This document shows, in pieces, positions 2,596 through 60,321 of a stretch of DNA of 64,000 nucleotides. The notes under the pieces are model-generated. The model was not told the origin of the DNA and searched no databases. It saw only the letters and a list, made by a program, of their open reading frames with translations. The stretch spans positions 76,017 through 140,016 of the forward strand of contig DATIHN010000016.1 of the NCBI GenBank assembly GCA_035480635.1, given 5' to 3'. The DNA is from Candidatus Saccharimonadales bacterium. GTDB taxonomy: Bacteria > Patescibacteriota > Saccharimonadia > UBA4664 > DATIHN01. Each line of letters starts with the position of its first letter. Position 1 is the first letter of the stretch. A program made the translations under genes and the position numbers.

Positions 2596-3071
2596 GATTT
2601 TAATTTCTCCAATCCCATCCGAAAGAGCTTTTCGGTGTCCTTGTACTCAATTAGTTTTAGGGCTTCCTCAGACTTAAACCACTTAACGTCGATGATGCCT
2701 TCGCTATCGCCCATTTTAAGGTCATTTGTGTTTTTGGTGGCTTCAGTTAGAAATACGCTAGTGGTCATAAAGATCAGCTTACCGGCCCGACGGTAAAAAA
2801 AGTAGATGTTGTCTAGTTTGTGGCGAATTTTGAGGTGCTTTAAGCCGGTTTCTTCGCCGATTTCGCGCAAGGCCGTTTGCTCCAGCTTTTCGCCTTTTTC
2901 GACGTGGCCTTTCGGAATTGTCCAGCGGCCCTTGTGGTCTTGGATCATCAAAATCTCGAGCTCGCTACCGCGGCCACGATAAACCACCCCGCCGGCGGTG
3001 AATTCGCGCACCGCCCTACTTGGCTGGGTCTGAGTTGGCTGCTTTGGCTTGATGGTCTTCTTCTGGTTCAT
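2592..3071 (-). CDS. NUDIX hydrolase (start uncertain; the long ORF extends to 3287 but overlaps nusB)
   Basis: Nudix box [18 protein letters not shown] (GX5EX7REUXEEXGU). ATG at 3071 (MNQKKT...) chosen to limit overlap with nusB. A GTG at 3012 is an alternative start. Confidence 0.6.
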
Positions 3072-4231: not shown

Positions 4232-4678
4232 TCAGGAGACCTGACCTTCGTCTTCGGAGCCAACGGGTTTTCTGACTTGGGCTGGTGATCTTGGAGTTCT
4301 GGTGGACGCACCTTTCTCATAATCTAATACCTTCATACCACCTTCCACTGGTTTTACATTCTTGTCCTTCGAGGAATCATCTGTAAAATCAACGCCGAAC
4401 TTTGCTATATCACCAGATGCCTCGCCCATCTCCTTTTTAATTTGTTCAGCACTTTCTCCACGTTCGACCATTCTCTGCCCCACATTTTCTGCTAACTGGC
4501 TGGCTCTTTCGGCATAAGTTCCTGCCGCATTAGACCACTCAGCCATTTCTCGCCGTCTGGCTTCAGCCTCGGGACCACTGGCCTTTGCCACTTCTTCCAT
4601 AGCCTTGAACTTTGATTCATCAGGACTACCACTGGTAACCTCTTCTCCTTCAGGACCTGGCCCATCTTCTGCACCCAT
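4232..4678 (-). CDS. hypothetical acidic, low-complexity protein
   Basis: 148-aa ORF rich in E, G and A. No recognisable motif. Confidence 0.45.
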   Translation of the reverse strand: MGAEDGPGPEGEEVTSGSPDESKFKAMEEVAKASGPEAEARRREMAEWSNAAGTYAERASQLAENVGQRMVERGESAEQIKKEMGEASGDIAKFGVDFTDDSSKDKNVKPVEGGMKVLDYEKGASTRTPRSPAQVRKPVGSEDEGQVS

Positions 4679-4721
4679 GATTACCCCTCCTTAAGTTAAA
4701 AATCTAATATTAACTACAGGC

Positions 4722-7616
4722 TTACTTTATCACAAAGTTAACCAGTTTGCGGGGCACTACAATGGTTTTAGCGATTTGTTTGCCCTCAAGATGCCGAGCG
4801 ACGTTTTCAAGTTCGGCAGCGGCTTTTTTGAGGTCATCTTCATTTATTGCAGGATCAATCGTTAATGTAGCTCGGAGTTTACCATTAACTTGGACCGGGA
4901 CTTCGATTAATTCTAGGCGGACGTACTTTTCATCATACTTAGGCCAGGTGCTAACGTGCACGCTTTCGGTGCCGCCTAGCTGCTCCCATAATTCCTCGGC
5001 CACGAAGGGGGCGAAAGGTGCCAGCAGCTGCACCAAAGTGTTGAGAGCGGTGGCCCAGGCGTCATGGGCATCGGCAAACGGCAAATCAACTTTCAATTTA
5101 TAGAGTTCGTTGGTTAGCTCCATTAATGCTGCTACAGCCGTGTTGAAGCTAAAGCTGCCAATGTCGTCCGTAACTTTCTTGATGGTGCGATGGGTGGCCG
5201 ACTGCAAAGCCGTTTCTAGTTCGGTCTTTGAACTACCTGAACCTACCTTAATCTCATCAAATTCCTGTACCAGTGCCCAGACTCGTTTGATAAAGCGTTG
5301 CGCACCATCTATGCCATTAGGGTTCCAGTCGACATTTTGGTTATAGGGCCCAATAAATAACTCATAGATGCGTAAGGCATCGGCGCCGTAACCTTGCTCG
5401 GTAATATCATCAGGCGTCACTACATTACCGTAGCGCTTACCCATTTTTCGGCCGTCGGCCCCACCAATCAGACCCTGGTTGCGCAGCTGTTTGAACGGTT
5501 CCTGGAAATTGATCAGGCCTTCATCGGCTAGAACCTTGGTCCAGAACCTGGCATAGAGCAAGTGGGCCACGGCATGCTCGACCCCACCCACGTAGGTATC
5601 AACCGGCAGCCAGTAGTTAGCAAGCTCTGGTTCAAAAGGGGCTTTGTCGTTGTGGGGGTCAGCGAAGCGTAAAAAGTACCAGCTACTATCCACGAACGTA
5701 TCCATAGTGTCGGTTTCGCGTTTGGCTGGCCCAGCACATTTTGGACATTTGGTGTTAACAAATGATTCGACCTTGGCTAGTGGCGATTGACCGCTGCCGT
5801 CAGGCAAATAGTCTTTGACTTCCGGCAGAATAACTGGCAAATCAGCTTCTGGCACTGGCACCGTGCCGCAGTTGTCGCAATAGATAATTGGAATCGGTGC
5901 GCCCCAATAACGCTGGCGGCTGATGAGCCAATCGCGCATGCGGTAATTGGTGTTAGCTTCAGCCTGGTTTTGCTTAGCCAAGAACTCAGTAATGGCTGGC
6001 CTGGCTTCGGATGAGCTCAAACCATCAAATTCGCCGGAATTATACAGAATGCCATCGCCTGTCCAAGGTTTAGCCAGAACAAACTTATCGTAGGCATAAC
6101 GATGGAGGTCGTCATGAACCTTGCTACCAGCTTCTGCCACACTTAGCCATTCAACTTTGAACTTACCGTGCTCATCGGGCTCGAGTTTTTGACCACTTTG
6201 TTCGGTGTTCTCTAGTTCAAAATAGAAGGCAATGGCATCAATTGAACGGGCCACCTTTTTAGAGTGAGCAAAGTAGTTATGATGAATGGTTTCTGATTGG
6301 CTAATTAACTTCAAGTTCTTGTAGCCAGTCTCCTCGGCCACCTCGCGCCTGGCCGTTTGTTCGGGATCTTCATCCTCATCGATCCCCCCACCGACAAAGA
6401 GGTTGCCCCCACTACCGTCACCCCAGTTAATCGAGAGAAGTTTTTTGGTTTTAGGATCCCGCACCACTGCTACAATACTTCGGCGGTGTTCCGGGTTTTC
6501 CTGCGGCGTGCCTGTGACAGGCTCAATTGAAGTTTTTAATGGGATATCGTATTTGCTAGCAAACTCAACGTCTCGCTCATCATGACCGTCACCAAAAACC
6601 GCACCCGTACCATAGCCTGGCAAAACAAAATCGGCTAACCAAATTGGCAACTTCTCATTATTAACTGGGTTGATAGCGTAGCTGCCGGTAAAGACGCCGG
6701 TTTTTTCCCGATCGGTTTCCATGCGCTGAATGTCCGATTCAACGGCGGCTGCCTTCTGGTAAGACTCAACTGCCTTTTTCTGAGTCGGCGTGGTCAGTTT
6801 TTGAACCATTGGATGCTCGGGGGCTAAAACCAGGAACGTAGCACTGTAAATCGTATCAATCCTGGTGGTGAATACTTCGATTGCCTCTTTTGAGCTCTCA
6901 ACCTTAAACTTGACCTTCGCTCCATGACTGCGACCAATCCAGTTGACCTGCATGGCTTTGATATTTTCGGGCCAGTCAATGTTTGCAAGATCATCCAACA
7001 AGCGATCAGCATAATCGGTGATTTTGAAGAACCATTGATTCAAACGGCGCTTCTCGACCTCGTGCCCACAGCGTTCGCAGACGTTTTTGGTACCGTCTTT
7101 AATAACTTGCTCGTTGGCGAGCACAGTTTTATCCTGCGGACACCAATTAACGCTAGCTTCGGCCTTGTAGGCTAAATCTCGATGATAAAACTTCAGAAAC
7201 AGCCATTGAGTCCAGCGATAATAATCGGGTTGGGCAGTATTGATTTCGCGCGACCAGTCGTAGCTGATACCAACGGCCGAAATTTGCTGCTTGAATGCGG
7301 CGATGTTTTTGGCTGTTGATTCGGCCGGTGACGTACCGGTTTTAATCGCAAAGTTTTCGGCCGGCAGGCCAAAGGCATCCCAACCCATGGGGTGGAGAAC
7401 ATTGAATCCCTGCATGCGTTTAAAACGGGCGTGGGCATCGGAAATAACATAGTTTCGAACATGGCCAACGTGCATGGTCTCACCGGATGGGTAGGGAAAC
7501 ATTTCGAGCTCATAAAACTTAGCTTTGGCTGGATTTTGATCCGCCTGATAGAGCTTAGTATCATCCCAAACTTTGGCCCACTTGGCTTCAACTTCGGCTG
7601 GTATATACTGCTTCAT
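4722..7616 (-). CDS. leuS: leucyl-tRNA synthetase with an inserted NUDIX-hydrolase domain in the editing region
   Basis: HVGH class-I motif near the N-terminus and a KMGKR (KMSKS-like) motif. The CP1/editing region is recognisable (GTGAVFGDGHDERDVEFASKY ... YNSGEFDGL). An extra ~140-aa domain with a perfect Nudix box GGGIDEDEDPEQTARREVAEETGY lies between them. 964 aa in one uninterrupted frame. Confidence 0.92.
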   Translation of the reverse strand: MKQYIPAEVEAKWAKVWDDTKLYQADQNPAKAKFYELEMFPYPSGETMHVGHVRNYVISDAHARFKRMQGFNVLHPMGWDAFGLPAENFAIKTGTSPAESTAKNIAAFKQQISAVGISYDWSREINTAQPDYYRWTQWLFLKFYHRDLAYKAEASVNWCPQDKTVLANEQVIKDGTKNVCERCGHEVEKRRLNQWFFKITDYADRLLDDLANIDWPENIKAMQVNWIGRSHGAKVKFKVESSKEAIEVFTTRIDTIYSATFLVLAPEHPMVQKLTTPTQKKAVESYQKAAAVESDIQRMETDREKTGVFTGSYAINPVNNEKLPIWLADFVLPGYGTGAVFGDGHDERDVEFASKYDIPLKTSIEPVTGTPQENPEHRRSIVAVVRDPKTKKLLSINWGDGSGGNLFVGGGIDEDEDPEQTARREVAEETGYKNLKLISQSETIHHNYFAHSKKVARSIDAIAFYFELENTEQSGQKLEPDEHGKFKVEWLSVAEAGSKVHDDLHRYAYDKFVLAKPWTGDGILYNSGEFDGLSSSEARPAITEFLAKQNQAEANTNYRMRDWLISRQRYWGAPIPIIYCDNCGTVPVPEADLPVILPEVKDYLPDGSGQSPLAKVESFVNTKCPKCAGPAKRETDTMDTFVDSSWYFLRFADPHNDKAPFEPELANYWLPVDTYVGGVEHAVAHLLYARFWTKVLADEGLINFQEPFKQLRNQGLIGGADGRKMGKRYGNVVTPDDITEQGYGADALRIYELFIGPYNQNVDWNPNGIDGAQRFIKRVWALVQEFDEIKVGSGSSKTELETALQSATHRTIKKVTDDIGSFSFNTAVAALMELTNELYKLKVDLPFADAHDAWATALNTLVQLLAPFAPFVAEELWEQLGGTESVHVSTWPKYDEKYVRLELIEVPVQVNGKLRATLTIDPAINEDDLKKAAAELENVARHLEGKQIAKTIVVPRKLVNFVIK

Positions 7617-15221: not shown

Positions 15222-15527
15222 TTAGTAATTCGAGACGTCTTGATTCGATGCTGCTGGTTGCAGGTTGGGTTGGCCGGACTGATCTACGCCTTGGTTATTA
15301 GTGCTCGGATTAGATGTCTGTTGGGGGCTGGTGGTTGTGCTCTCAGATCCGTTGGTCGGTGCGACTTGAATATCCGGTTGAGTCGATGTGGATGCAGTTG
15401 ACTCGGTTTGGTCGGGATGGATTTGATTAGAAACAATTTGGCTAGTGCCAAAGATAACTAGGACACTCAATCCGGCTAGTAAAAATATGGTGAAAGTTTT
15501 TTTATCGATCAGTAATTGATTAGACAT
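15222..15527 (-). CDS. small secreted/anchored Ser/Thr/Gln-rich protein
   Basis: Start trimmed to the second Met (MSNQLLIDKKTF...) because the annotated upstream Met overlaps tRNA-Ala(CGC). TM helix followed by a low-complexity tail. Confidence 0.4.
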   Translation of the reverse strand: MSNQLLIDKKTFTIFLLAGLSVLVIFGTSQIVSNQIHPDQTESTASTSTQPDIQVAPTNGSESTTTSPQQTSNPSTNNQGVDQSGQPNLQPAASNQDVSNY

Positions 15528-15536
15528 AGTTTTCCT

Positions 15537-15612
15537 TGGTGGAGCCGGGGAGACTCGAACTCCCTGCCTCAGCAATGCGAATGCTGCGCTCTACCGGGTG
15601 AGCTACGGCCCC
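15537..15612 (-). tRNA. tRNA-Ala (anticodon CGC)
   Basis: Reverse complement GGGGCCGTAGCTCACCCGGTAGAGCGCAGCATTCGCATTGCTGAGGCAGGGAGTTCGAGTCTCCCCGGCTCCACCA. G3:U70 pair, anticodon loop UUCGCAU, encoded CCA. Confidence 0.9.
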
Positions 15613-15699: not shown

Positions 15700-16953
15700 C
15701 TACCAAATGAGGTCTTTACCGGCAACTTCTACCCGATCGCCCGCCTTAAGTCCCTTCTGCTCTAACTTTTTAACAATGCCCAATTTAGTTAAAATATCTC
15801 GCAAACGGGCTAGGCTGTCAGGGTTGGCAAAATCAGTCCGTTTGGCAAAACGCTCTGGTTTTTGGCCACTGATGCGCCAACCGCTATCAAGTTTTTCAAT
15901 TTCCCAAGCCGCTTCAGGTAGTTTGGTGTTGGATAGATCATAGACGAAAGGCGTCTCGGATTCTGGTTGGCTGCGGTGTTGGCGCAAAATTTCGGCCACA
16001 GCTCTTAGTAACTCGGCAAGACCCTTGTGAGCCGGAGCAGAAATGGCATAAACGGGTCTTTTAGTGGCTTTTTTGAGTTGAGCAACGATCAGTTTTACCT
16101 TAGCTGGCTCAAGACCATCGATTTTAGTGAGGACCACGATCTGCTCTTTATTTATTAAGTCATGGCCGTAACTTTTGAGTTCTTGTTGAATCAGGCGGTA
16201 ATTAGTCACCACGTCCTGACTATGAGCATCAATCAAATGCAGCAAGATGCTAGTGCGTTCAATATGGCGCAGGAACTCATCGCCCAAGCCTTTACCTAAA
16301 CTAGCGCCCTCGATTAACCCCGGGATGTCGGCGGCCACGAAGCTGTCGTCATCGATTGCTACCACCCCAAGGTTCGGCACTAGGGTGGTAAATGCGTAGT
16401 CGGCAATTTCCGGCCGAGCATTAGAAATGACTGATAACAGGGTCGATTTACCAGCGTTGGGTAATCCAATCAGGCCAACATCGGCCACCAGCTTTAGTTC
16501 CAACCGCAGCTGCATTTCCTCACCGGCCTCGCCCAATTCGGCCACCCGAGGTGATTGGCGGGTTGAAGACACAAAATGAGCGTTACCAAAGCCACCGCGG
16601 CCGCCTTGGGCCATAACTTGGCTTTGGCCATCTTCGGCTAGATCGGCGATTTGTTTATCGCCCACATAAACCATGGTGCCAACGGGTACTTTGATGGTTA
16701 TGTCCTCGGCCGATTTGCCATGAGCCTTGTTTTTGCCACCCATTTCGCCGTCGCTAGCAGCGAGAGACTTGTGGTTACGAAAACTGGCTAGGGTATTTAG
16801 GTTGTGATCGACTAGAAAAATAATATCGCCGCCATGGCCGCCATCACCACCGTCGGGGCCACCTTTGGCCCGATATTTTTCGTGCAAAAAGCTGGTCCGG
16901 CCATCGCCGCCTTTGCCAGCTTTAACTTTTATTTCGACATTATCTGCAAACAT
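15700..16953 (-). CDS. obg: GTPase Obg
   Basis: N-terminal Obg fold MFADNVEIKVKAGKGGDGRTSFLHEKY. G-domain motifs GLPNAGKST and DIPGLIEGA. Confidence 0.92.
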   Translation of the reverse strand: MFADNVEIKVKAGKGGDGRTSFLHEKYRAKGGPDGGDGGHGGDIIFLVDHNLNTLASFRNHKSLAASDGEMGGKNKAHGKSAEDITIKVPVGTMVYVGDKQIADLAEDGQSQVMAQGGRGGFGNAHFVSSTRQSPRVAELGEAGEEMQLRLELKLVADVGLIGLPNAGKSTLLSVISNARPEIADYAFTTLVPNLGVVAIDDDSFVAADIPGLIEGASLGKGLGDEFLRHIERTSILLHLIDAHSQDVVTNYRLIQQELKSYGHDLINKEQIVVLTKIDGLEPAKVKLIVAQLKKATKRPVYAISAPAHKGLAELLRAVAEILRQHRSQPESETPFVYDLSNTKLPEAAWEIEKLDSGWRISGQKPERFAKRTDFANPDSLARLRDILTKLGIVKKLEQKGLKAGDRVEVAGKDLIW

Positions 16954-16969
16954 AGTTTTATTTTACCAA

Positions 16970-17010
16970 GTTTATTAAACCGACAACCCCCGGGTCCGAA
17001 GACCCGGGGG
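16970..17010 (-). terminator. Rho-independent terminator (CCCCCGGGUC-UUCG-GACCCGGGGG followed by UUGUCGGUUU)
   Basis: Perfect GC-rich hairpin with a UUCG tetraloop and a 3' U-rich tract on the minus strand, directly upstream of the obg start. Confidence 0.7.
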
Positions 17011-17649
17011 CAACTTTCCGCCAATGCGGTCGGAGGAAACTGGCGATCAGCTCGGTCTGACCAACTCAGTCTTGCACATTCTGGTGACACAGTCGCCACG
17101 AGGCAGATGGTCACCGGAACTCCGGAGTGCTTGCTCTATGCGCCCTTGCGGGATCACCGGGGTTGACCCGGGCCGAGATACGGATTCTTGATTAGGCAGT
17201 TCCGTAGAACCTTATCGGCATGGTGGACTCGCGTCCAACCACCACCTTACTCTGGTGAGCTGACTACTTGGGTCGGTGTGGCCGTCCCAGATGGTCCCAG
17301 AGTAGTGCCAATTTCAAGTGGAGTTTCCTCCGCGAGGTAGAGCTGACGGATCCGATGGCAGGGTAGCAATCGAACCGCCTCTCGTCACGTGGGTGTCTAA
17401 TCCGCGTGAGTCAGCCAGACCTCTCTTGACGCTTGGCACTGGCCCCGTCCTTTCACTGCCCGAAGGCAAGCGACAGTTTCGGGGCACCGACGCTTCGCTC
17501 CGCTCCGCTTGGTCGACCCGGTCAGGTCTTCCTTTTGGTGGTAGCTAGCATCGGTTCGACCGGCTGTGGCCGCGCTCGAGGCACGTTCCGCAAACCAGTG
17601 CGAATTGTCAATCTGTTCTCGTCCACTCTGCATTACGAAGACCAAACAG
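16975..17649 (-). ncRNA. candidate large structured non-coding RNA (~675 nt, class unknown) with its own promoter and an intrinsic terminator
   Basis: GC-rich in an otherwise AT-rich intergenic context. No plausible ORF on either strand (the only ORFs are low-complexity R/S/A-rich). Minus-strand promoter TTGATC-17-TATATT at 17656-17684. Perfect 10-bp stem with a UUCG loop followed by a U-rich tail at 16970-17010. An 11-bp perfect long-range helix (17001-17011 pairs with 17322-17332). Internal UUCG-capped hairpins. Confidence 0.5.
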
Positions 17650-17655
17650 GACCTA

Positions 17656-17684
17656 AATATAATCCTTTCAAAAACAACGATCAA
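17656..17684 (-). promoter_or_regulatory. sigma70-like promoter (-35 TTGATC, 17-nt spacer, -10 TATATT) driving the candidate ncRNA
   Basis: Hexamers and spacing read from the minus strand just downstream of the LysM-CHAP stop and a weak terminator hairpin. Confidence 0.45.
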
Positions 17685-17775
17685 GCATAAGCAATTTGAT
17701 TTTTACAGATTAGAAACATTAAAAACCAAAATTTTCTCAAAAAAGTTATCCACAGTTTTGGATGGCCGAGATAGC

Positions 17776-19020
17776 TTAATAAATGTAGCGGAACTCGCTG
17801 GCTGGTACCGTTCGCGACGAGATGTGGTTCCAACCGCCGTTGTAATTCATTTCCGAAACCGTCACCATGCCGCCCGAAACTCCCTCAACATAGGCCACAT
17901 GGCCGTAGTAACCACCGGAGGTCCAAGCGATGGCGCCGGCGGCCGGGGCTGAGCCCACGGCGTAACCGCTAGCTTTGGCATTGTAATACCAGGCAGCAGC
18001 ATTGCCCCAGTTACTGGGCACATAGCGGCGGCTAGCCACGTAGTAAGTGCAATAACCATAGGCGTAACCATTACCGCTGAAGGCCAACCGAGGCAAGAGG
18101 CGGCTGTTACGCCCGCTGGTAGCGATAGCAATGTTGGTGGCGGCCTTGGCAGCTGGAGCATCAGCTTTGACGCCATCGGGGATGATAATTTGTTGGCCAG
18201 GTGTTAGACCCTTAACCTCAGCATCATTAAAGCTCAGGATTTGAGCGGCATTCGATTGATATTTAGCCGCCAAACTATCGGCCGTATCGCCCCCTTGAAC
18301 GGTGTAGAGCAAGCCACTAATCGGCAAAATAGTTAGGGCTTGACCGGGCTTGATGTTATCAGAGTCAGTTAAATTATTAGCCCACTTAATGGTGGCGGTT
18401 GTGACATTAAATTTAGCCGCGATACCGGAAAGGGTATCGCCATCGGCCACGCTGTAATTAATAATAGTGTGCTGATCGGCCCCGCTGGTGGCAACGGCCT
18501 GTCGTTTATTCAAAAAGTCACTACTGGAAGTAGGTAGGGATATTTGCGCGCTCAAAGCCGAAGCGGTCTGATTAGCATCGGAAGCAATCGTCAAATTAGT
18601 TTTGGCTGCTACCACTGCTGCCACATTGGCAGCCGAAGCCTCATCCAAAACTGAACCCAGCCCAGCCGGAGAGTTAATTAAACTGGCTTGATGGCTCGAA
18701 GCCGAGCTCCCAGCCACAACCACGAGTGTAATTGCGCTGGCCACTGCCACGTGCAAACTAAGCCTTTTGGCAGTTGGTTGAGCCAGGACTGTGCGCACAT
18801 TCTTAACTTGGTTTTCAGTTGCTCGGGCTAGTTCGGCCGAGCGGTTTTTGGCGTCTGTTAAACGTGGGAGTTTTGTTTTAGAGATGGACTCGGCTGCTCC
18901 GGTTCCAAGCTGCCAGGTGGCAGGCGGGAACGATTCGAGGGAGCCGCTGAAGGCTTCTCTACTAATGTGATTTCTCCACCCCAAGCCGGTATTACTACCG
19001 ATTGGGAAACTAAGGGCCAC
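17776..19020 (-). CDS. peptidoglycan hydrolase: two LysM domains plus a C-terminal CHAP (NlpC/P60-like amidase/peptidase) domain
   Basis: LysM repeats (YTVQGGDTADSLAAKY…, YSVADGDTLSGIAAKF…). CHAP region CTYYVASRRY…GHVAYVEGV with the catalytic Cys/His. GTG start with an AAGGAAG RBS. Confidence 0.8.
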   Translation of the reverse strand: MALSFPIGSNTGLGWRNHISREAFSGSLESFPPATWQLGTGAAESISKTKLPRLTDAKNRSAELARATENQVKNVRTVLAQPTAKRLSLHVAVASAITLVVVAGSSASSHQASLINSPAGLGSVLDEASAANVAAVVAAKTNLTIASDANQTASALSAQISLPTSSSDFLNKRQAVATSGADQHTIINYSVADGDTLSGIAAKFNVTTATIKWANNLTDSDNIKPGQALTILPISGLLYTVQGGDTADSLAAKYQSNAAQILSFNDAEVKGLTPGQQIIIPDGVKADAPAAKAATNIAIATSGRNSRLLPRLAFSGNGYAYGYCTYYVASRRYVPSNWGNAAAWYYNAKASGYAVGSAPAAGAIAWTSGGYYGHVAYVEGVSGGMVTVSEMNYNGGWNHISSRTVPASEFRYIY

Positions 19021-31138: not shown

Positions 31139-32290
31139 TTAGGCTTTGATCAGGCTCCTTAAGGTTTGTATAAACTGATCTAATTCGGTTTGAGTCGTCG
31201 ATCGCCCTAACGTCAAGCGCAATGACGAATTGGCTTGATCTAGAGTTAAGCCAATCGCTAACAGCACATGTGAGGGCTGATTGTTCGAAGCCCCGCAGGC
31301 GGCGCCGGTGGCCACGGCAAAACCAGCCGCATCGAGCTTGTAAACCAAATCCTCACCGTTTTGCTTATCAATACGAAAATTAATAATGCTAGGCAGGCTG
31401 TGTTGGGGATTGTTGATTGTGAGCCCCGGTATTTTCGTCAGTTCTGATTTTAAGAATCGGTTCAGCTCACCGTAGCGCCGCTCGTCTGCCTGCCGGCGCT
31501 GTTCGGCCAATTCCAAGGCCGTGGCAAAACCCGTCGACTGCACCAGCGATTCACTACCGCTGCGCAGTCCCTTCTCCTGCCCACCGCCGTAGATCAGTGG
31601 CTCTAATTTGGTGCCAGTGCGAACGTAAAGCGCGCCTGCACCCTTTGGTCCATAAATCTTGGCGCCGTTTAGAGCCATCAAGTCCACGCCCAGCCGGCTG
31701 ACTTGCAGGCTGAGGTGACCGGTGGCTTGGGCGCCGTCGCTAAATAAATAAATCGGCAGATCAATGCCGCGTTTTTTGCGGTCGGCGCCAGTGCTAGCGA
31801 TTAGTTGAGCAATTTCGGCCATTGGTTGAATGGTGCCTAGCTCGCTATTCGCCAAACCGATACAGAGCAAGACAACATTATCAGCTATTAGCTTTTCCAG
31901 CTGGTCGCGGTTGATCCGGCCGTTCTTTTTAACTGGAATCAACCCACCCCTATCACCCAGTTTTTCAATAATGGCCAAAACGGCCTGATGCTCAGTCGCC
32001 AGCGCCAGCACTCTACCCTGTGGATAACTTTTGCTGACGCCCTGAATGGCAAAGTTGACTGCCTCGGTCCCACCGGCGGTAAAGATAATTTCGCTCGGTT
32101 TGGCGCCCAAAACCATGGCCACCTGCTTGCGGGCAGCCTCCAATGCTAACTTAGCCGCCCGCCCTTCGGCATATAGGCTTGAGGGATTAGCAAACTCACC
32201 AGCCAAATACGGCTCCATAGACGCTTTGACGGCTGGGTCGAGCGGCGTGGCTGCCGCATAATCTAAATAAACCCTCTTTTCAGCTTTCAT
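31139..32290 (-). CDS. cysteine desulfurase (class-V aminotransferase, IscS/NifS-like)
   Basis: MKAEKRVYLDYAATTPLDP N-terminus. PLP-Lys region (SDGAQATGH). 383 aa. Confidence 0.8.
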   Translation of the reverse strand: MKAEKRVYLDYAAATPLDPAVKASMEPYLAGEFANPSSLYAEGRAAKLALEAARKQVAMVLGAKPSEIIFTAGGTEAVNFAIQGVSKSYPQGRVLALATEHQAVLAIIEKLGDRGGLIPVKKNGRINRDQLEKLIADNVVLLCIGLANSELGTIQPMAEIAQLIASTGADRKKRGIDLPIYLFSDGAQATGHLSLQVSRLGVDLMALNGAKIYGPKGAGALYVRTGTKLEPLIYGGGQEKGLRSGSESLVQSTGFATALELAEQRRQADERRYGELNRFLKSELTKIPGLTINNPQHSLPSIINFRIDKQNGEDLVYKLDAAGFAVATGAACGASNNQPSHVLLAIGLTLDQANSSLRLTLGRSTTQTELDQFIQTLRSLIKA

Positions 32291-32822: not shown

Positions 32823-33552
32823 TCTTGGTGGTAGCGACTGATAGCTCTTCGGCCGACTCCCCGCGCAAGTTGGCTAGGAACTCGGCGATGATTTTGGTGT
32901 GGGCTGGCTCGTTGCACTGACCGCGGTGGGGTGCCGGGGTTAGATAAGGACAGTCGGTTTCTAACAACATTCGATCAAGCGGGCAGGCTTTGGCTGCGGC
33001 CAACTGATATTGGTATTTAGTAAAGGTCATAATACCGTTATAACCTACGTAAAAACCCTGGTCCAAAACTTTATTCAACGTCGCCTCGTCTCCTGTAAAA
33101 CAGTGCACCACACCGCGAACACCTTTATAGTTCTCCAGCACCCGGAAAAAGTCGTCAAAGGCCTCGCGGACATGAAAAACTAGGGGTTTATCCACAGCCT
33201 GAGCAATGTCGATCTGGGCCTGAAAAGCCTTTATTTGATCCCTTTTAGGTGAGTGTTCATAGTAATAATCCAACCCACATTCGCCAATGGCTACGACTTT
33301 GGGGTTGGTGGCCAGGTCTTTAATAGCTTCAAGGGTTTTTTGGCTGAGTTTGGCATCATGCGGATGCAAGCCGACCGTGGCCCAAACGCTGTCATGACTA
33401 TTTGCTAGGTCGATAGCTAGTTTACTGTCATTATCGTCTACACCAATAGCGATGATTTTAGTCACGCCGGCCTCGACTGCCCTGGCCATGACCTCGTCGC
33501 GATCACTATCATAGACGTCCTGGTGAATATGGGCGTGGGTGTCGATGAGCAT
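32794..33552 (-). CDS. tatD: TatD-family metal-dependent DNase/hydrolase
   Basis: Canonical N-terminus MLIDTHAHI at M37 of the longer ORF, which uses a GTG at 33660. The upstream extension is low-complexity. Confidence 0.8.
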   Translation of the reverse strand: MLIDTHAHIHQDVYDSDRDEVMARAVEAGVTKIIAIGVDDNDSKLAIDLANSHDSVWATVGLHPHDAKLSQKTLEAIKDLATNPKVVAIGECGLDYYYEHSPKRDQIKAFQAQIDIAQAVDKPLVFHVREAFDDFFRVLENYKGVRGVVHCFTGDEATLNKVLDQGFYVGYNGIMTFTKYQYQLAAAKACPLDRMLLETDCPYLTPAPHRGQCNEPAHTKIIAEFLANLRGESAEELSVATTKNAEALFGLL

Positions 33553-43387: not shown

Positions 43388-43528
43388 GCCTCTTAGTTAA
43401 ATCCAAGAGCTTTTGTTTCCACCTTTTTGTTTCTGTTAGTATCCTAGCAAAACCGCTCAGGCTGTCAACGCTTATCCACATGTTTTGACGATAATCAATA
43501 CTTTTAGTCAATATCTGATTGTAGGTAA

Positions 43529-59637: not shown

Positions 59638-60321
59638 ATGAAGCAGGGTATGGTCAAAACATTTACCGACCGCTTTCCCTTCGTCGGCCCAATATTTTGG
59701 ATGGTCAGCTTCCAGTACTATTTGGCCCAACTGATTGTGGCAGCGGCTTGGACCATTCCGTATAGCATAACCATCAACACCATCAGCGACCTAGGCAATA
59801 CGGTCTGCGGGATCTACAACGGCCGTTACGTCTGCTCGCCCCGCCATGCCCTCATGAATGTTTCGTTCGTGACTCTGGGTATTACCATGATGATTGGCGC
59901 AGTTTTGATCTACCAGGAATTCCGAGAGAACTTGGGCGGGCTAATTGGTTTTAGTTTTATGGGTCTGGCCGGGTTGGGCACCATTTTGGTCGGGCTATTT
60001 CCCGAAAACGTTAACGCCACTTGGCACCAGCTTGGCGCTGCCTTGCCATTCTTTGTCGGCAATTTAAGTATGATTATCCTGGGGCTTAGCCTTGACATTC
60101 CCAGGCCTTTGAAAATTTACACCCTTTTCTCTGGTTTCATTTCTCTAACTGCGGCGGTACTATTTACCAGCCATCATTTCTTGAGTTTGGGTGGTGGTGG
60201 GATGGAAAGAATCGCCGCCTACCCGCAGACTATGTGGATAATAGTATTTGGTCTCTATATCTCAACCAACCACCTGAAGGCTGCTAATCAAGCCGATTTG
60301 AGCGCCAACATTAAATCATAG
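59638..60321 (+). CDS. DUF998-like polytopic membrane protein
   Basis: Six to seven TM helices. Follows the ABC genes. Confidence 0.5.
   Translation: MKQGMVKTFTDRFPFVGPIFWMVSFQYYLAQLIVAAAWTIPYSITINTISDLGNTVCGIYNGRYVCSPRHALMNVSFVTLGITMMIGAVLIYQEFRENLGGLIGFSFMGLAGLGTILVGLFPENVNATWHQLGAALPFFVGNLSMIILGLSLDIPRPLKIYTLFSGFISLTAAVLFTSHHFLSLGGGGMERIAAYPQTMWIIVFGLYISTNHLKAANQADLSANIKS

Follow-up and report, generated by a model that had tools for sequence, protein, structure and literature searches.

A candidate structured non-coding RNA gene of about 675 nt, apparently lineage-specific, upstream of obg in a Candidatus Saccharimonadales genome

The spacer separating obg from a LysM-CHAP hydrolase gene in a Candidatus Saccharimonadales MAG is non-coding and GC-rich, and is predicted to be far more structured than the rest of the genome. 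The reading we favour, with confidence somewhat short of even, is that a structured RNA of approximately 675 nt would be encoded here, on the minus strand upstream of obg, by a lineage-specific non-coding gene of its own that is independently transcribed. What the analysis shows for this stretch (hereafter the element) is its non-coding character, an excess of fold stability, tetraloop caps specific to one strand, the lack of a match to known RNA families, and a promoter of obg that is independent of the element. The window denotes the whole 64-kb stretch of DNA that was analysed, and all positions refer to it.

Locus, coding potential and the obg promoter

The ORF-free region (window 16954-17775) is the largest intergenic region in the 64-kb window and the sole genuinely ORF-free, GC-rich one there, and its two flanking genes share a strand. 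The Obg protein encoded next to it is 100% identical to one assigned to Candidatus Saccharimonadales. The features of the region, in the direction of the minus strand, are as follows.

17690-17775, minus strand: AT-rich spacer past the LysM-CHAP stop codon, read directly from the sequence
17656-17684, minus strand: sigma-70-like promoter match, TTGATC (17684-17679), 17-nt spacer, TATATT (17661-17656), 9/12 consensus matches
17013-17650, minus strand: GC-rich, ORF-free core, predicted to be highly structured, delimited by GC, fold z-score, coding log-odds and the lack of protein matches
17456-17469, minus strand: predicted hairpin UUGCC-UUCG-GGCAG with a UNCG-type tetraloop cap (capped-hairpin scan)
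17303-17441, minus strand: best-defined predicted domain, multibranched nested helices including the GGAG-GAAA-CUCC hairpin, pair probabilities 0.93-1.00
17322-17332, minus strand: 5' arm CGGAGGAAACU of an 11-nt perfect long-range complement (inverted-repeat match)
17320-17331, minus strand: predicted hairpin GGAG-GAAA-CUCC with a GNRA cap, pair probability 1.00, overlapping the 5' arm of the 11-bp long-range complement
17224-17237, minus strand: predicted hairpin UGGAC-GCGA-GUCCA with a GNRA cap (capped-hairpin scan)
17198-17211, minus strand: predicted hairpin GGUUC-UACG-GAACU with a UNCG cap (capped-hairpin scan)
17031-17041, minus strand: 3' arm AGUUUCCUCCG of the 11-nt perfect long-range complement (inverted-repeat match)
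16974-17011, minus strand: terminator-like hairpin (16986-17011) in which a UUCG loop closes a G+C stem of 10-11 bp, then an interrupted U-tract UUGUCGGUUUAAU, pair probability 0.97
16954-16968, minus strand: putative promoter of obg itself, extended -10 TGGTAAAAT (16968-16960), 6 nt before the obg ATG; a boundary feature outside the RNA

The GC content was 0.57-0.64 (upper value 0.635) over 17000-17599, against 0.35 at 17600-17799 and 0.505 for the whole window, which bears out the original description of a GC-rich stretch beside AT-rich flanks. The element has a GC content of 0.59, similar to that of the tRNAs of the same genome (0.58-0.66). The longest ORFs in the region encode 50-110 aa, and none of eight ORFs of the region matched Pfam at E<=1. 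Codon log-odds lay below zero in each of the six frames (-0.12 to -0.53; the 5th percentile of windows from real genes is +0.107), and stop codons of mixed types are present in each frame, so that the earlier statement that no credible ORF exists here was upheld. Protein homology was also looked for: a word-indexed search of the six-frame stop-free segments against 5.8 billion clusters gave nothing at E<=1e-3, exhaustive HMMER comparison of the eleven longest segments with 1.84 billion representatives gave 0 matches, and tblastn of all ORFs in the window found no paralogous remnant. A pseudogene or decayed protein gene was rejected, there being neither residual protein similarity in these searches nor coding statistics in any frame.

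The AT-rich spacer past the LysM-CHAP stop codon contains a hairpin of 5 bp with U6 behind it; the hairpin is too weak to be detected by the terminator scan, and this site overlaps a perfect DnaA-box 9-mer (17746-17754). An oriC at 17746 was considered but is not supported, as the DnaA box stands alone and the genes to its left and right have the same orientation.

At the other boundary, nine related loci share a TGnTAnnAT box located 6-7 nt ahead of the obg start codon ATG, whether they carry an insert or none (spacers of 61-190 nt included), and the box in locus L001 was also called as a promoter by the promoter scan. The distance between promoter and ATG suggests that the obg mRNA is leaderless. 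The element is therefore not the leader of obg, whose promoter is conserved and sits where a leaderless mRNA would require it, and a 5' leader or riboswitch of obg was ruled out by the conserved position of the box at all loci.

Predicted fold and transcription signals

The predicted minus-strand fold was far more stable than that of shuffled sequences, with z-scores of -5.6 with the terminator-like hairpin and -4.3 without it; 36 control windows from the same genome gave a mean of -1.19 (sd 0.94, minimum -3.47). The plus strand without the hairpin had a z-score of -2.4. With the hairpin included, the plus-strand value was unstable between runs (-5.7 with 20 shuffles, -4.05 with 30 shuffles), and the strand call from fold energy alone is therefore soft. 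The predicted fold contains 24 G-U pairs on the minus strand versus 17 on the plus strand. Hairpins capped by UNCG or GNRA tetraloops, which had been described from the sequence by eye, proved to exceed chance on the minus strand only: five were observed where 0.78 were expected, a number reached by 0 of 500 shuffles, versus two where 0.73 were expected on the plus strand (P=0.18).

The helices of the predicted fold are short and irregular. An 11-bp perfect long-range helix had also been proposed. The complement exists, though its first arm lies at 17031-17041, 30 nt away from the position originally given (17001-17011), and the helix with 17322-17332 would enclose 280 nt. Its formation is thermodynamically disfavoured (pair probability ~0.001; energy penalty of +5.1 kcal/mol when it is forced), since each arm pairs in local hairpins instead.

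The promoter-like and terminator-like signals are both oriented on the minus strand. TTGATC-17-TATATT is present as originally reported, but its frequency is that of chance, with one match found versus ~0.9 expected in the 1.7 kb scanned. Likewise, the hairpin described as a textbook terminator is real in that its stem arms (16987-16996 and 17001-17010, 10 nt each) are 100% complementary around a UUCG loop, but its tail is broken, and the consensus terminator scan does not call it because the tail UUGUCGGUUUAAU is too poor in U.

We infer the transcription, ends and function of the element as follows. Transcription would be driven by a sigma-70-type promoter belonging to the element (17684-17656) and start near 17650 (AGGUCC...), run through the GC-rich multi-helix core (17650-17013), and end at the G+C hairpin 16987-17010, just before the obg promoter. 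The product would most likely be a stable folded RNA acting in trans as a protein-binding scaffold, since it has many capped hairpins, no repeated loop motifs and no adjacent gene that depends on it. A CsrB-like sponge was considered and rejected, as by eye no loop motif is repeated and GGA is not enriched.

Related loci and competing explanations

Other copies of the element were found only in 100% identical contigs of the same strain, which is present in the DNA samples SRR9179559-61 and the assembly GCA_964637125.1. Among the best 120 Obg matches, the window, L001 and L003 have no close relative and the sole close pair is L010 and L016. The nearest Obg relative is 71% identical, the recovered relatives are about 60-70% identical, and L002 is ~51% identical. 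Gene order is kept in the relatives, and the spacer sequences are unrelated to that of the element: blastn and nhmmer of the element against the syntenic spacers of the recovered relatives revealed no similarity, and a MAFFT alignment of these spacers carries no meaning. The expectation of conservation beside obg thus failed at the sequence level in every relative recovered. A single-sequence covariance model (R1) built from the domain 17303-17441 matched only itself in the window and nine related loci. Scans of genome, metagenome and viral collections with 12 degenerate 24-nt patterns, derived from pseudo-proteins tiling the RNA, found no relative, and blastn against phage and plasmid collections gave no match. 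As no homolog was recovered and the other copies are 100% identical, the element offers no material for covariation analysis. At an Obg identity of only about 60-70%, absent similarity does not refute an RNA gene.

Across the clade, the spacer ranges from 61 to 1295 nt. Among the spacers of nine relatives, three hold other GC-rich structured inserts (L001, L003 and L010), two contain small ORFs that lie on the opposite strand and lack Pfam domains (L008 and L011), and four are 61-190 nt long. The three ORF-free inserts had fold z-scores of -4.8 (L001), -8.75 (L003) and -6.3 (L010), compared with -2.7 to +0.6 for the ORF-bearing spacers and flanking coding controls. The four ORF-free inserts, that of the window included, share no k-mers beyond chance and those of L001 and L010 show no tetraloop enrichment, so they may not form one class. 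In the inserts of L003 and L010, near-perfect helices of 11-15 bp are numerous, and the two strands fold about equally well. In L010, a clear terminator of the LysM-CHAP gene is followed by TTGACC-17-TATATT (10/12 matches), nearly identical to the TTGATC-17-TATATT of the window and in the same relative place, and then by the ORF-free structured insert; this is the layout proposed for the unit in the window. L016, the closest relative of L010 (81% Obg identity), has a spacer of just 120 nt and no insert. All related loci have at least one strong hairpin between LysM-CHAP and obg, ranging from a small one in L013 through inverted repeats of 16 bp (L009) and 42 bp (L002) to the inserts of 450-650 nt; these hairpins and inserts are all oriented alike, and each stops immediately ahead of the conserved obg promoter.

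An independently transcribed RNA gene in the window thus has to be weighed against the lack of any homolog in the searches, and hence of conservation and covariation, the chance-level promoter match and U-poor terminator tail, and the patchy presence of inserts between L010 and L016, which would not be expected of an essential RNA. The ubiquity, common orientation and fixed end point of the hairpins described above could also be read as a cis element of the LysM-CHAP transcript, namely a long structured 3' UTR with a stack of terminators whose size drifts freely, which would stabilise the LysM-CHAP mRNA and shield the leaderless obg promoter from read-through. Read-through into the core is plausible given that the hairpin after the LysM-CHAP stop codon in the window is weak (5 bp and not called). 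The promoter match does not exceed chance, and free drift would account for the missing sequence conservation. However, in both L010 and L011 the LysM-CHAP stop codon is immediately followed by a strong terminator, and in L010 the 10/12 promoter between terminator and structured insert points to a separate unit; moreover, a multibranched structure of 640 nt with GNRA and UNCG caps far exceeds the needs of termination or 3' protection, for which relatives make do with spacers of 61-190 nt. We consider this explanation unlikely. The hypervariable length of the spacer, the small ORFs of L008 and L011, the patchiness between so close a pair as L010 and L016, and the failure to find a homolog in any collection searched would also suit non-functional DNA, that is, the decayed remains of genes or foreign DNA that entered a spacer prone to insertions, with incidental predicted structure. 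We give this explanation the same low weight: exhaustive HMMER found no protein similarity in any frame and coding statistics were absent, the z-scores of the element (-4.3 to -5.6) lie beyond those of ORF-bearing spacers and coding DNA, enrichment of tetraloops on one strand is not a product of decay, and the dense genomes of Saccharibacteria would, in our judgement, be unlikely to keep 680 nt of junk.

Unrelated inserts at one site in different lineages, the 42-bp perfect inverted repeat that forms the spacer of L002, and the long near-perfect helices of L003 and L010 with about equal folding of both strands bring to mind a mobile element that is not autonomous, or a palindromic one (of the MITE, REP or ORF-less intron type), with its target site after a terminator or upstream of obg. 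For the element itself this is very unlikely. It has no second or partial copy within the 64-kb window and no terminal inverted repeats at its boundaries; a single direct repeat involving the flank, of 10 nt (17171-17180 and 17764-17773), is about what we estimate for chance; phage and plasmid collections and viral contigs gave no matches, nor did Rfam models of group I and group II introns, ribozymes and HEARO; and its own helices are short and irregular, not long and near-perfect.

If the favoured reading of a separate RNA gene is correct, a folded RNA of 675 nt kept in a tiny, dense genome would offer a first way into the RNA-based functions of these epibionts. The genomes of CPR bacteria and Saccharibacteria are tiny and dense in coding sequence, and neither small nor large regulatory RNAs have been validated in them; for the saccharibacterium TM7x, a coding fraction of 94% and an absence of validated small RNAs are reported (10.1101/2022.03.25.485537). 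A literature search on Saccharibacteria ncRNAs at the obg/LysM-CHAP locus found nothing. A broader and quite improbable extension is that the Saccharimonadales clade has a fixed-site, independently transcribed large structured RNA whose sequence turns over fast or is replaced, becoming unrecognisable at ~30% Obg divergence; the 675-nt RNA of the window would then found a new CPR class and could serve the epibiont lifestyle or defence. The recurrence of unrelated structured inserts at one site would, if it holds, constitute an unusual hypervariable RNA locus. If drift of a terminator region or decayed DNA is the explanation instead, the finding is an ordinary one.

Comparison with known RNA families and regulatory elements

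Using cmscan with Rfam 15, no match was found in the region at the gathering threshold. At E<=10, the 901-nt region and two fragments of ~370 nt gave only insignificant listings on the terminator hairpin: anti-hemB with 15.2 bits (gathering 49.5) and LAGLIDADG-2 with 12.6 bits (gathering 94.9). ARAGORN found no tRNA or tmRNA in the region and three tRNAs elsewhere in the 64-kb window. The earlier exclusion of RNase P, tmRNA, SRP, 6S and group II by eye therefore stands as far as Rfam 15 models show, and to the same extent (E<=10) OLE, GOLLD, HEARO, ROOL and raiA gave no match; all of these families, from RNase P to raiA, are represented in Rfam.

Like RNase P RNA of type A or B, the element is large and, by prediction, structured. 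By eye, it contains a few short strings resembling conserved regions of RNase P: GGAGGAAACUCC versus GAGGAAAGUCC, and CCAGUGCCAAG...AGAGAGG. The hallmark of RNase P RNA is P4, formed from CR-I and CR-V with a bulged U, together with a canonical order of conserved regions. In the element, these strings do not follow that order when compared by eye, the CR-I-like string GGAGGAAACUCC is predicted to form its own GAAA-capped hairpin (pair probability 1.00) instead of a P4 with a bulged U, and no covariance-model match was obtained even in local mode on short fragments.

The large, ornate bacterial ncRNA classes OLE, ROOL and GOLLD, and also raiA and HEARO, whose functions are unknown or partly known, owe their definition to covariation and broad conservation, and each has an Rfam model. 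The element resembles them in size (~600-700 nt, a class comparable to OLE), in being ORF-free, GC-rich and intergenic, in its many predicted helices with GNRA and UNCG caps, and in having candidate signals of a stand-alone gene with no obvious cis target. It differs from them in having neither an Rfam match (E<=10) nor a detectable homolog. The usual hosts or gene neighbours of these classes (for OLE, the phylum Bacillota according to PMC12054373) do not apply to the element.

With species-specific stand-alone sRNA genes, the element shares a promoter-like site, a 3' G+C hairpin, an intergenic position, the absence of an ORF, and a lack of conservation beyond close relatives; it is ~3-10 times longer than typical base-pairing sRNAs and, by prediction, far more structured. 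With a structured terminator or insulator, or a long 3' UTR, it shares a position between same-strand genes that ends at the obg promoter, where the hairpins of relatives vary widely in size. It differs from such elements in its predicted multibranched fold with an internal promoter-like site, and in L010 the insert at the corresponding place is preceded by a separate terminator.

Coding content and base composition of the spacer

No intergenic region of the window is larger than the one containing the element. Its layout, with the bordering genes, is as follows:

15700-16953, minus strand: obg, encoding the Obg protein
16954-17775: spacer between obg and the LysM-CHAP hydrolase gene, 822 nt, without a credible gene
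17776-19020, minus strand: LysM-CHAP hydrolase gene, the neighbour on the other side of the element

As background, the reported coding density of Saccharibacteria (TM7x) is ~94%, with no small RNA validated (10.1101/2022.03.25.485537). ORFs of 50-110 aa are present in all frames of the spacer. None of them generated a Pfam match at E<=1, stop codons of mixed types break up every frame, and a codon model trained on 31 genes of the window gave log-odds of -0.12 to -0.53 in the six frames; only 5% of windows from real genes score below +0.107. The absence of a credible ORF, as stated in the original prediction, was thus confirmed. When the stop-free segments of 25 aa or longer from all six frames were concatenated and compared with 5.8 billion protein clusters, no match reached E<=1e-3. 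Exhaustive HMMER comparison of the eleven longest segments with 1.84 billion representatives was equally negative, and tblastn of all window ORFs of at least 80 aa against the region returned self-matches only. Spurious ORFs annotated on homologous RNA loci, which the same protein searches would detect, did not surface. The GC content is 0.57-0.635 over 17000-17599 and 0.35 at 17600-17799 of the spacer, in agreement with the predicted contrast between a GC-rich element and AT-rich flanks; it is 0.505 for the whole window and 0.58-0.66 for its tRNAs.

Several other features of the locus were recorded. A 10-nt perfect direct repeat, GGCCGAGATA, is located at 17171-17180 in the structured core and at 17764-17773 just past the LysM-CHAP stop codon; chance alone would give an estimated ~0.3 repeats of this kind, which makes a target-site duplication unlikely. 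The perfect DnaA-box 9-mer TTATCCACA occurs five times in the 64 kb (17746-17754, 32019-32027, 33188-33196, 43472-43480 and 60233-60241) against 0.32 expected, a count reached in 0/100 shuffles, and there was no enrichment in the window when one mismatch was allowed. The first box lies within a weak hairpin of the AT-rich spacer, immediately past the end of the LysM-CHAP gene, and has 15 identical bases in common with the site at 32019. Directly after obg, tRNA-Ala(CGC) (15537-15612) overlaps by 39 nt a TTG-start ORF of 117 aa (15222-15575), so this ORF either starts further downstream or is no gene.

Predicted structure and strand

Fold stability was expressed as z against dinucleotide shuffles. 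The minus strand (17655-16975) gave z = -5.6 with 30 shuffles and -3.9 in a run with 20, and the plus strand of the same region -4.05 and -5.7, respectively. For 36 control windows of 680 nt, taken from both strands of the 64 kb, z averaged -1.19 (sd 0.94) and reached -3.47 at the lowest; the fold of the element is more stable than that of every control window. With the terminator hairpin removed, z was -4.3 for the minus strand and -2.4 for the plus strand. Pair probability exceeded 0.9 for many helices, notably in a multibranched domain at 17303-17441. Five hairpins of the minus strand have a stem of at least 4 bp and a UNCG or GNRA cap, where 0.78 would be expected (0/500 shuffles reached five); the plus strand has two, where 0.73 would be expected (P = 0.18). 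The capped hairpins noted earlier are thus real and enriched on the minus strand only. The minus-strand fold contains 24 G-U pairs versus 17 in the plus-strand fold. These asymmetries in tetraloop caps and G-U pairs point to RNA-level selection on the obg-sense strand.

The signals proposed to delimit the transcript fared less well. The sigma70-like promoter TTGATC-17-TATATT is present at 17684-17656 on the minus strand, but in a scan of 1.7 kb, chance alone would produce ~0.9 matches of this kind. The UUCG-capped hairpin (arms 16987-16996 and 17001-17010) also exists, but with the tail UUGUCGGUUUAAU it was not called by the terminator scan and is not "textbook". This promoter may drive transcription and this hairpin may terminate it. 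The 11-nt long-range helix is a perfect complement, but its arm is 17031-17041, not 17001-17011, pairing with 17322-17332; its ensemble probability is ~0.001, and forcing it costs 5.1 kcal/mol because a local hairpin forms in each arm.

Syntenic spacers in relatives

The window Obg was 100% identical to a protein named by its source as from a Candidatus Saccharimonadales bacterium (CPR, Saccharibacteria), and its next best match among 5.8 billion protein clusters had 71% identity. Four other contigs, from the same strain, carry the region with 100% identity over 851 nt and therefore provide no comparative information. We compared the loci of the closest Obg relatives (L001-L003 and L008-L016), whose Obg proteins have 51-70% identity with that of the window and 52-81% with each other. 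The gene order LysM-CHAP, spacer, obg is common to all loci fetched, and the window, L001, L003 and L010 have a tRNA after obg.

Spacers between the LysM-CHAP gene and obg, with the obg promoter region (prom.) in the coordinates of each locus
L013-L015: 61 nt; insert absent; prom. 2980-3000 (L013)
L016: 120 nt; insert absent; prom. 1315-1353
L002: 146 nt; 42-bp perfect inverted repeat; prom. 4985-5000
L009: 190 nt; 16-bp inverted repeat; prom. ~2960-3000
L001: 585 nt; GC-rich, ORF-free; insert 4520-4945; prom. 4960-5000
L003: 638 nt; GC-rich, one 99-aa opposite-strand ORF called, without Pfam domain; insert 4397-4965; prom. 4975-5000
L011/L012: 690 nt; one opposite-strand ORF, 148 aa
L010: 691 nt; GC-rich, ORF-free; insert 2403-2935; prom. 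~2960-3000
Window: 822 nt; GC-rich, ORF-free; prom. 16954-16985
L008: 1295 nt; two opposite-strand ORFs, 154 and 169 aa, lipoprotein-like N-termini (by eye); prom. ~2960-3000

The spacer is hypervariable across these relatives. Conservation beside obg had been proposed as a check on the original prediction, and the syntenic spacers, at 51-70% Obg identity, proved unrelated in sequence: blastn, nhmmer and tblastx revealed no likeness to the window spacer or among the spacers except the obg promoter, the four ORF-free inserts had no k-mers in common beyond chance, and a covariance model of domain 17303-17441 had no match in nine related loci. The inserts of L001, L003 and L010 (GC 0.59-0.64) nevertheless gave obg-sense fold z of -4.8, -8.75 and -6.3 (-9.15 for a slightly longer L003 stretch with 100 shuffles), versus +0.6 to -2.7 for ORF-bearing spacers and flanking coding controls. 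Long, near-perfect helices (11-17 bp) are numerous in all three, and L003 has three GNRA caps against 0.64 expected (P = 0.018). Immediately ahead of the obg promoter, a terminator was called at the end of the L001 and L003 inserts, whereas the hairpins at this position in L010 are terminator-like but weaker. In L010, a strong LysM-CHAP terminator is followed by a 10/12 promoter match, TTGACC-17-TATATT, and then the insert, a predicted unit layout the same as that of the window. L016, the locus closest to L010 among the best 120 Obg matches (81% Obg identity), is without an insert. This recurrence of unrelated structured inserts at one site is the most unusual aspect of the locus.

In 10/10 loci, the obg ATG is preceded at 6-7 nt by an extended -10 box, TGnTAnnAT; in the window it is 16968-16960, directly after the hairpin, and in L001 the promoter was also called by the promoter scan. 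A conserved TTGTCAA precedes the box in most loci by only ~10 nt, too short for a normal -35, and may be a regulator site. This geometry, whether the insert is present or absent, implies a probably leaderless obg mRNA with its own promoter. A role of the element as an obg leader or riboswitch was accordingly rejected, all ten loci having an insert-independent -10 box.

The remaining loci showed features of their own. The whole L002 spacer (4860-5000) consists of a perfect inverted repeat of 42 bp whose arms enclose 46 nt with a separate hairpin; the 3' arm extends into the obg -10 box, and the spacer looks like a MITE or giant hairpin. The L002 Obg (5001-6689) was called as 562 aa with the GTP1_OBG and MMR_HSR1 Pfam domains listed twice each, which suggests an N-terminal partial tandem duplication or fusion. 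The opposite-strand ORFs of L008 (1780-2904) and L011 (2527-2973) are without Pfam domains, and those of L008 are flanked by similar G+C hairpins (AAGTGAAGACCCCGAACCGCGA...).

Interpretation and comparison with known RNAs

The best-supported reading, tentative at a little under even chances, is that the minus strand encodes a structured ncRNA of ~675 nt, lineage-specific and stand-alone. The patchy distribution of the inserts and the total lack of sequence conservation keep three other explanations alive. The region could belong to the LysM-CHAP transcript, as its long structured 3' UTR and insulator, which we consider unlikely; non-functional remnant DNA in an insertion-prone spacer is unlikely to the same degree, and a non-autonomous mobile or palindromic element is more improbable still. 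What speaks for an RNA gene is the strand specificity of the RNA signals, together with the L010 layout.

No second copy of the element was found within the 64-kb window, and no match was obtained by blastn in 50,697 phage records or in 72,556 plasmid records. Non-exhaustive scans of genome, metagenome and viral contig collections, which used exact patterns only (two pseudo-proteins tiling the RNA in single frames and six degenerate 24-nt patterns per scan), yielded no confirmed relative, and an Obg scan of the genome contig collection found nothing. As a structured ncRNA, the element would act in trans, and a folded scaffold that binds protein is the most plausible role, because neither a sponge-type repeated loop motif nor an adjacent cis target was seen. 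The element is well suited to transcript mapping, at low cost.

The original observation was largely right once its coordinates and the "textbook" wording are corrected, and its reading as a structured ncRNA is plausible. Its statement that the element fits no known RNA family was borne out: Rfam 15 gave no match in the region at gathering score and, at E<=10, whether the region was searched whole or in halves, only insignificant matches, all at the terminator hairpin; ARAGORN detected no tRNA or tmRNA there. By the Rfam 15 models, the element belongs to no known family. Covariance models of RNase P, tmRNA, SRP, 6S, introns, HEARO and raiA did not match; the look-alike strings to RNase P are short and in the wrong order, and GGAGGAAACUCC makes its own GAAA hairpin. 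OLE, ROOL and GOLLD are similar to the element in size and style, though likewise without a covariance-model match. If real, the element, at present a single-sequence orphan, would represent a new family within a known kind, the large structured bacterial ncRNAs.
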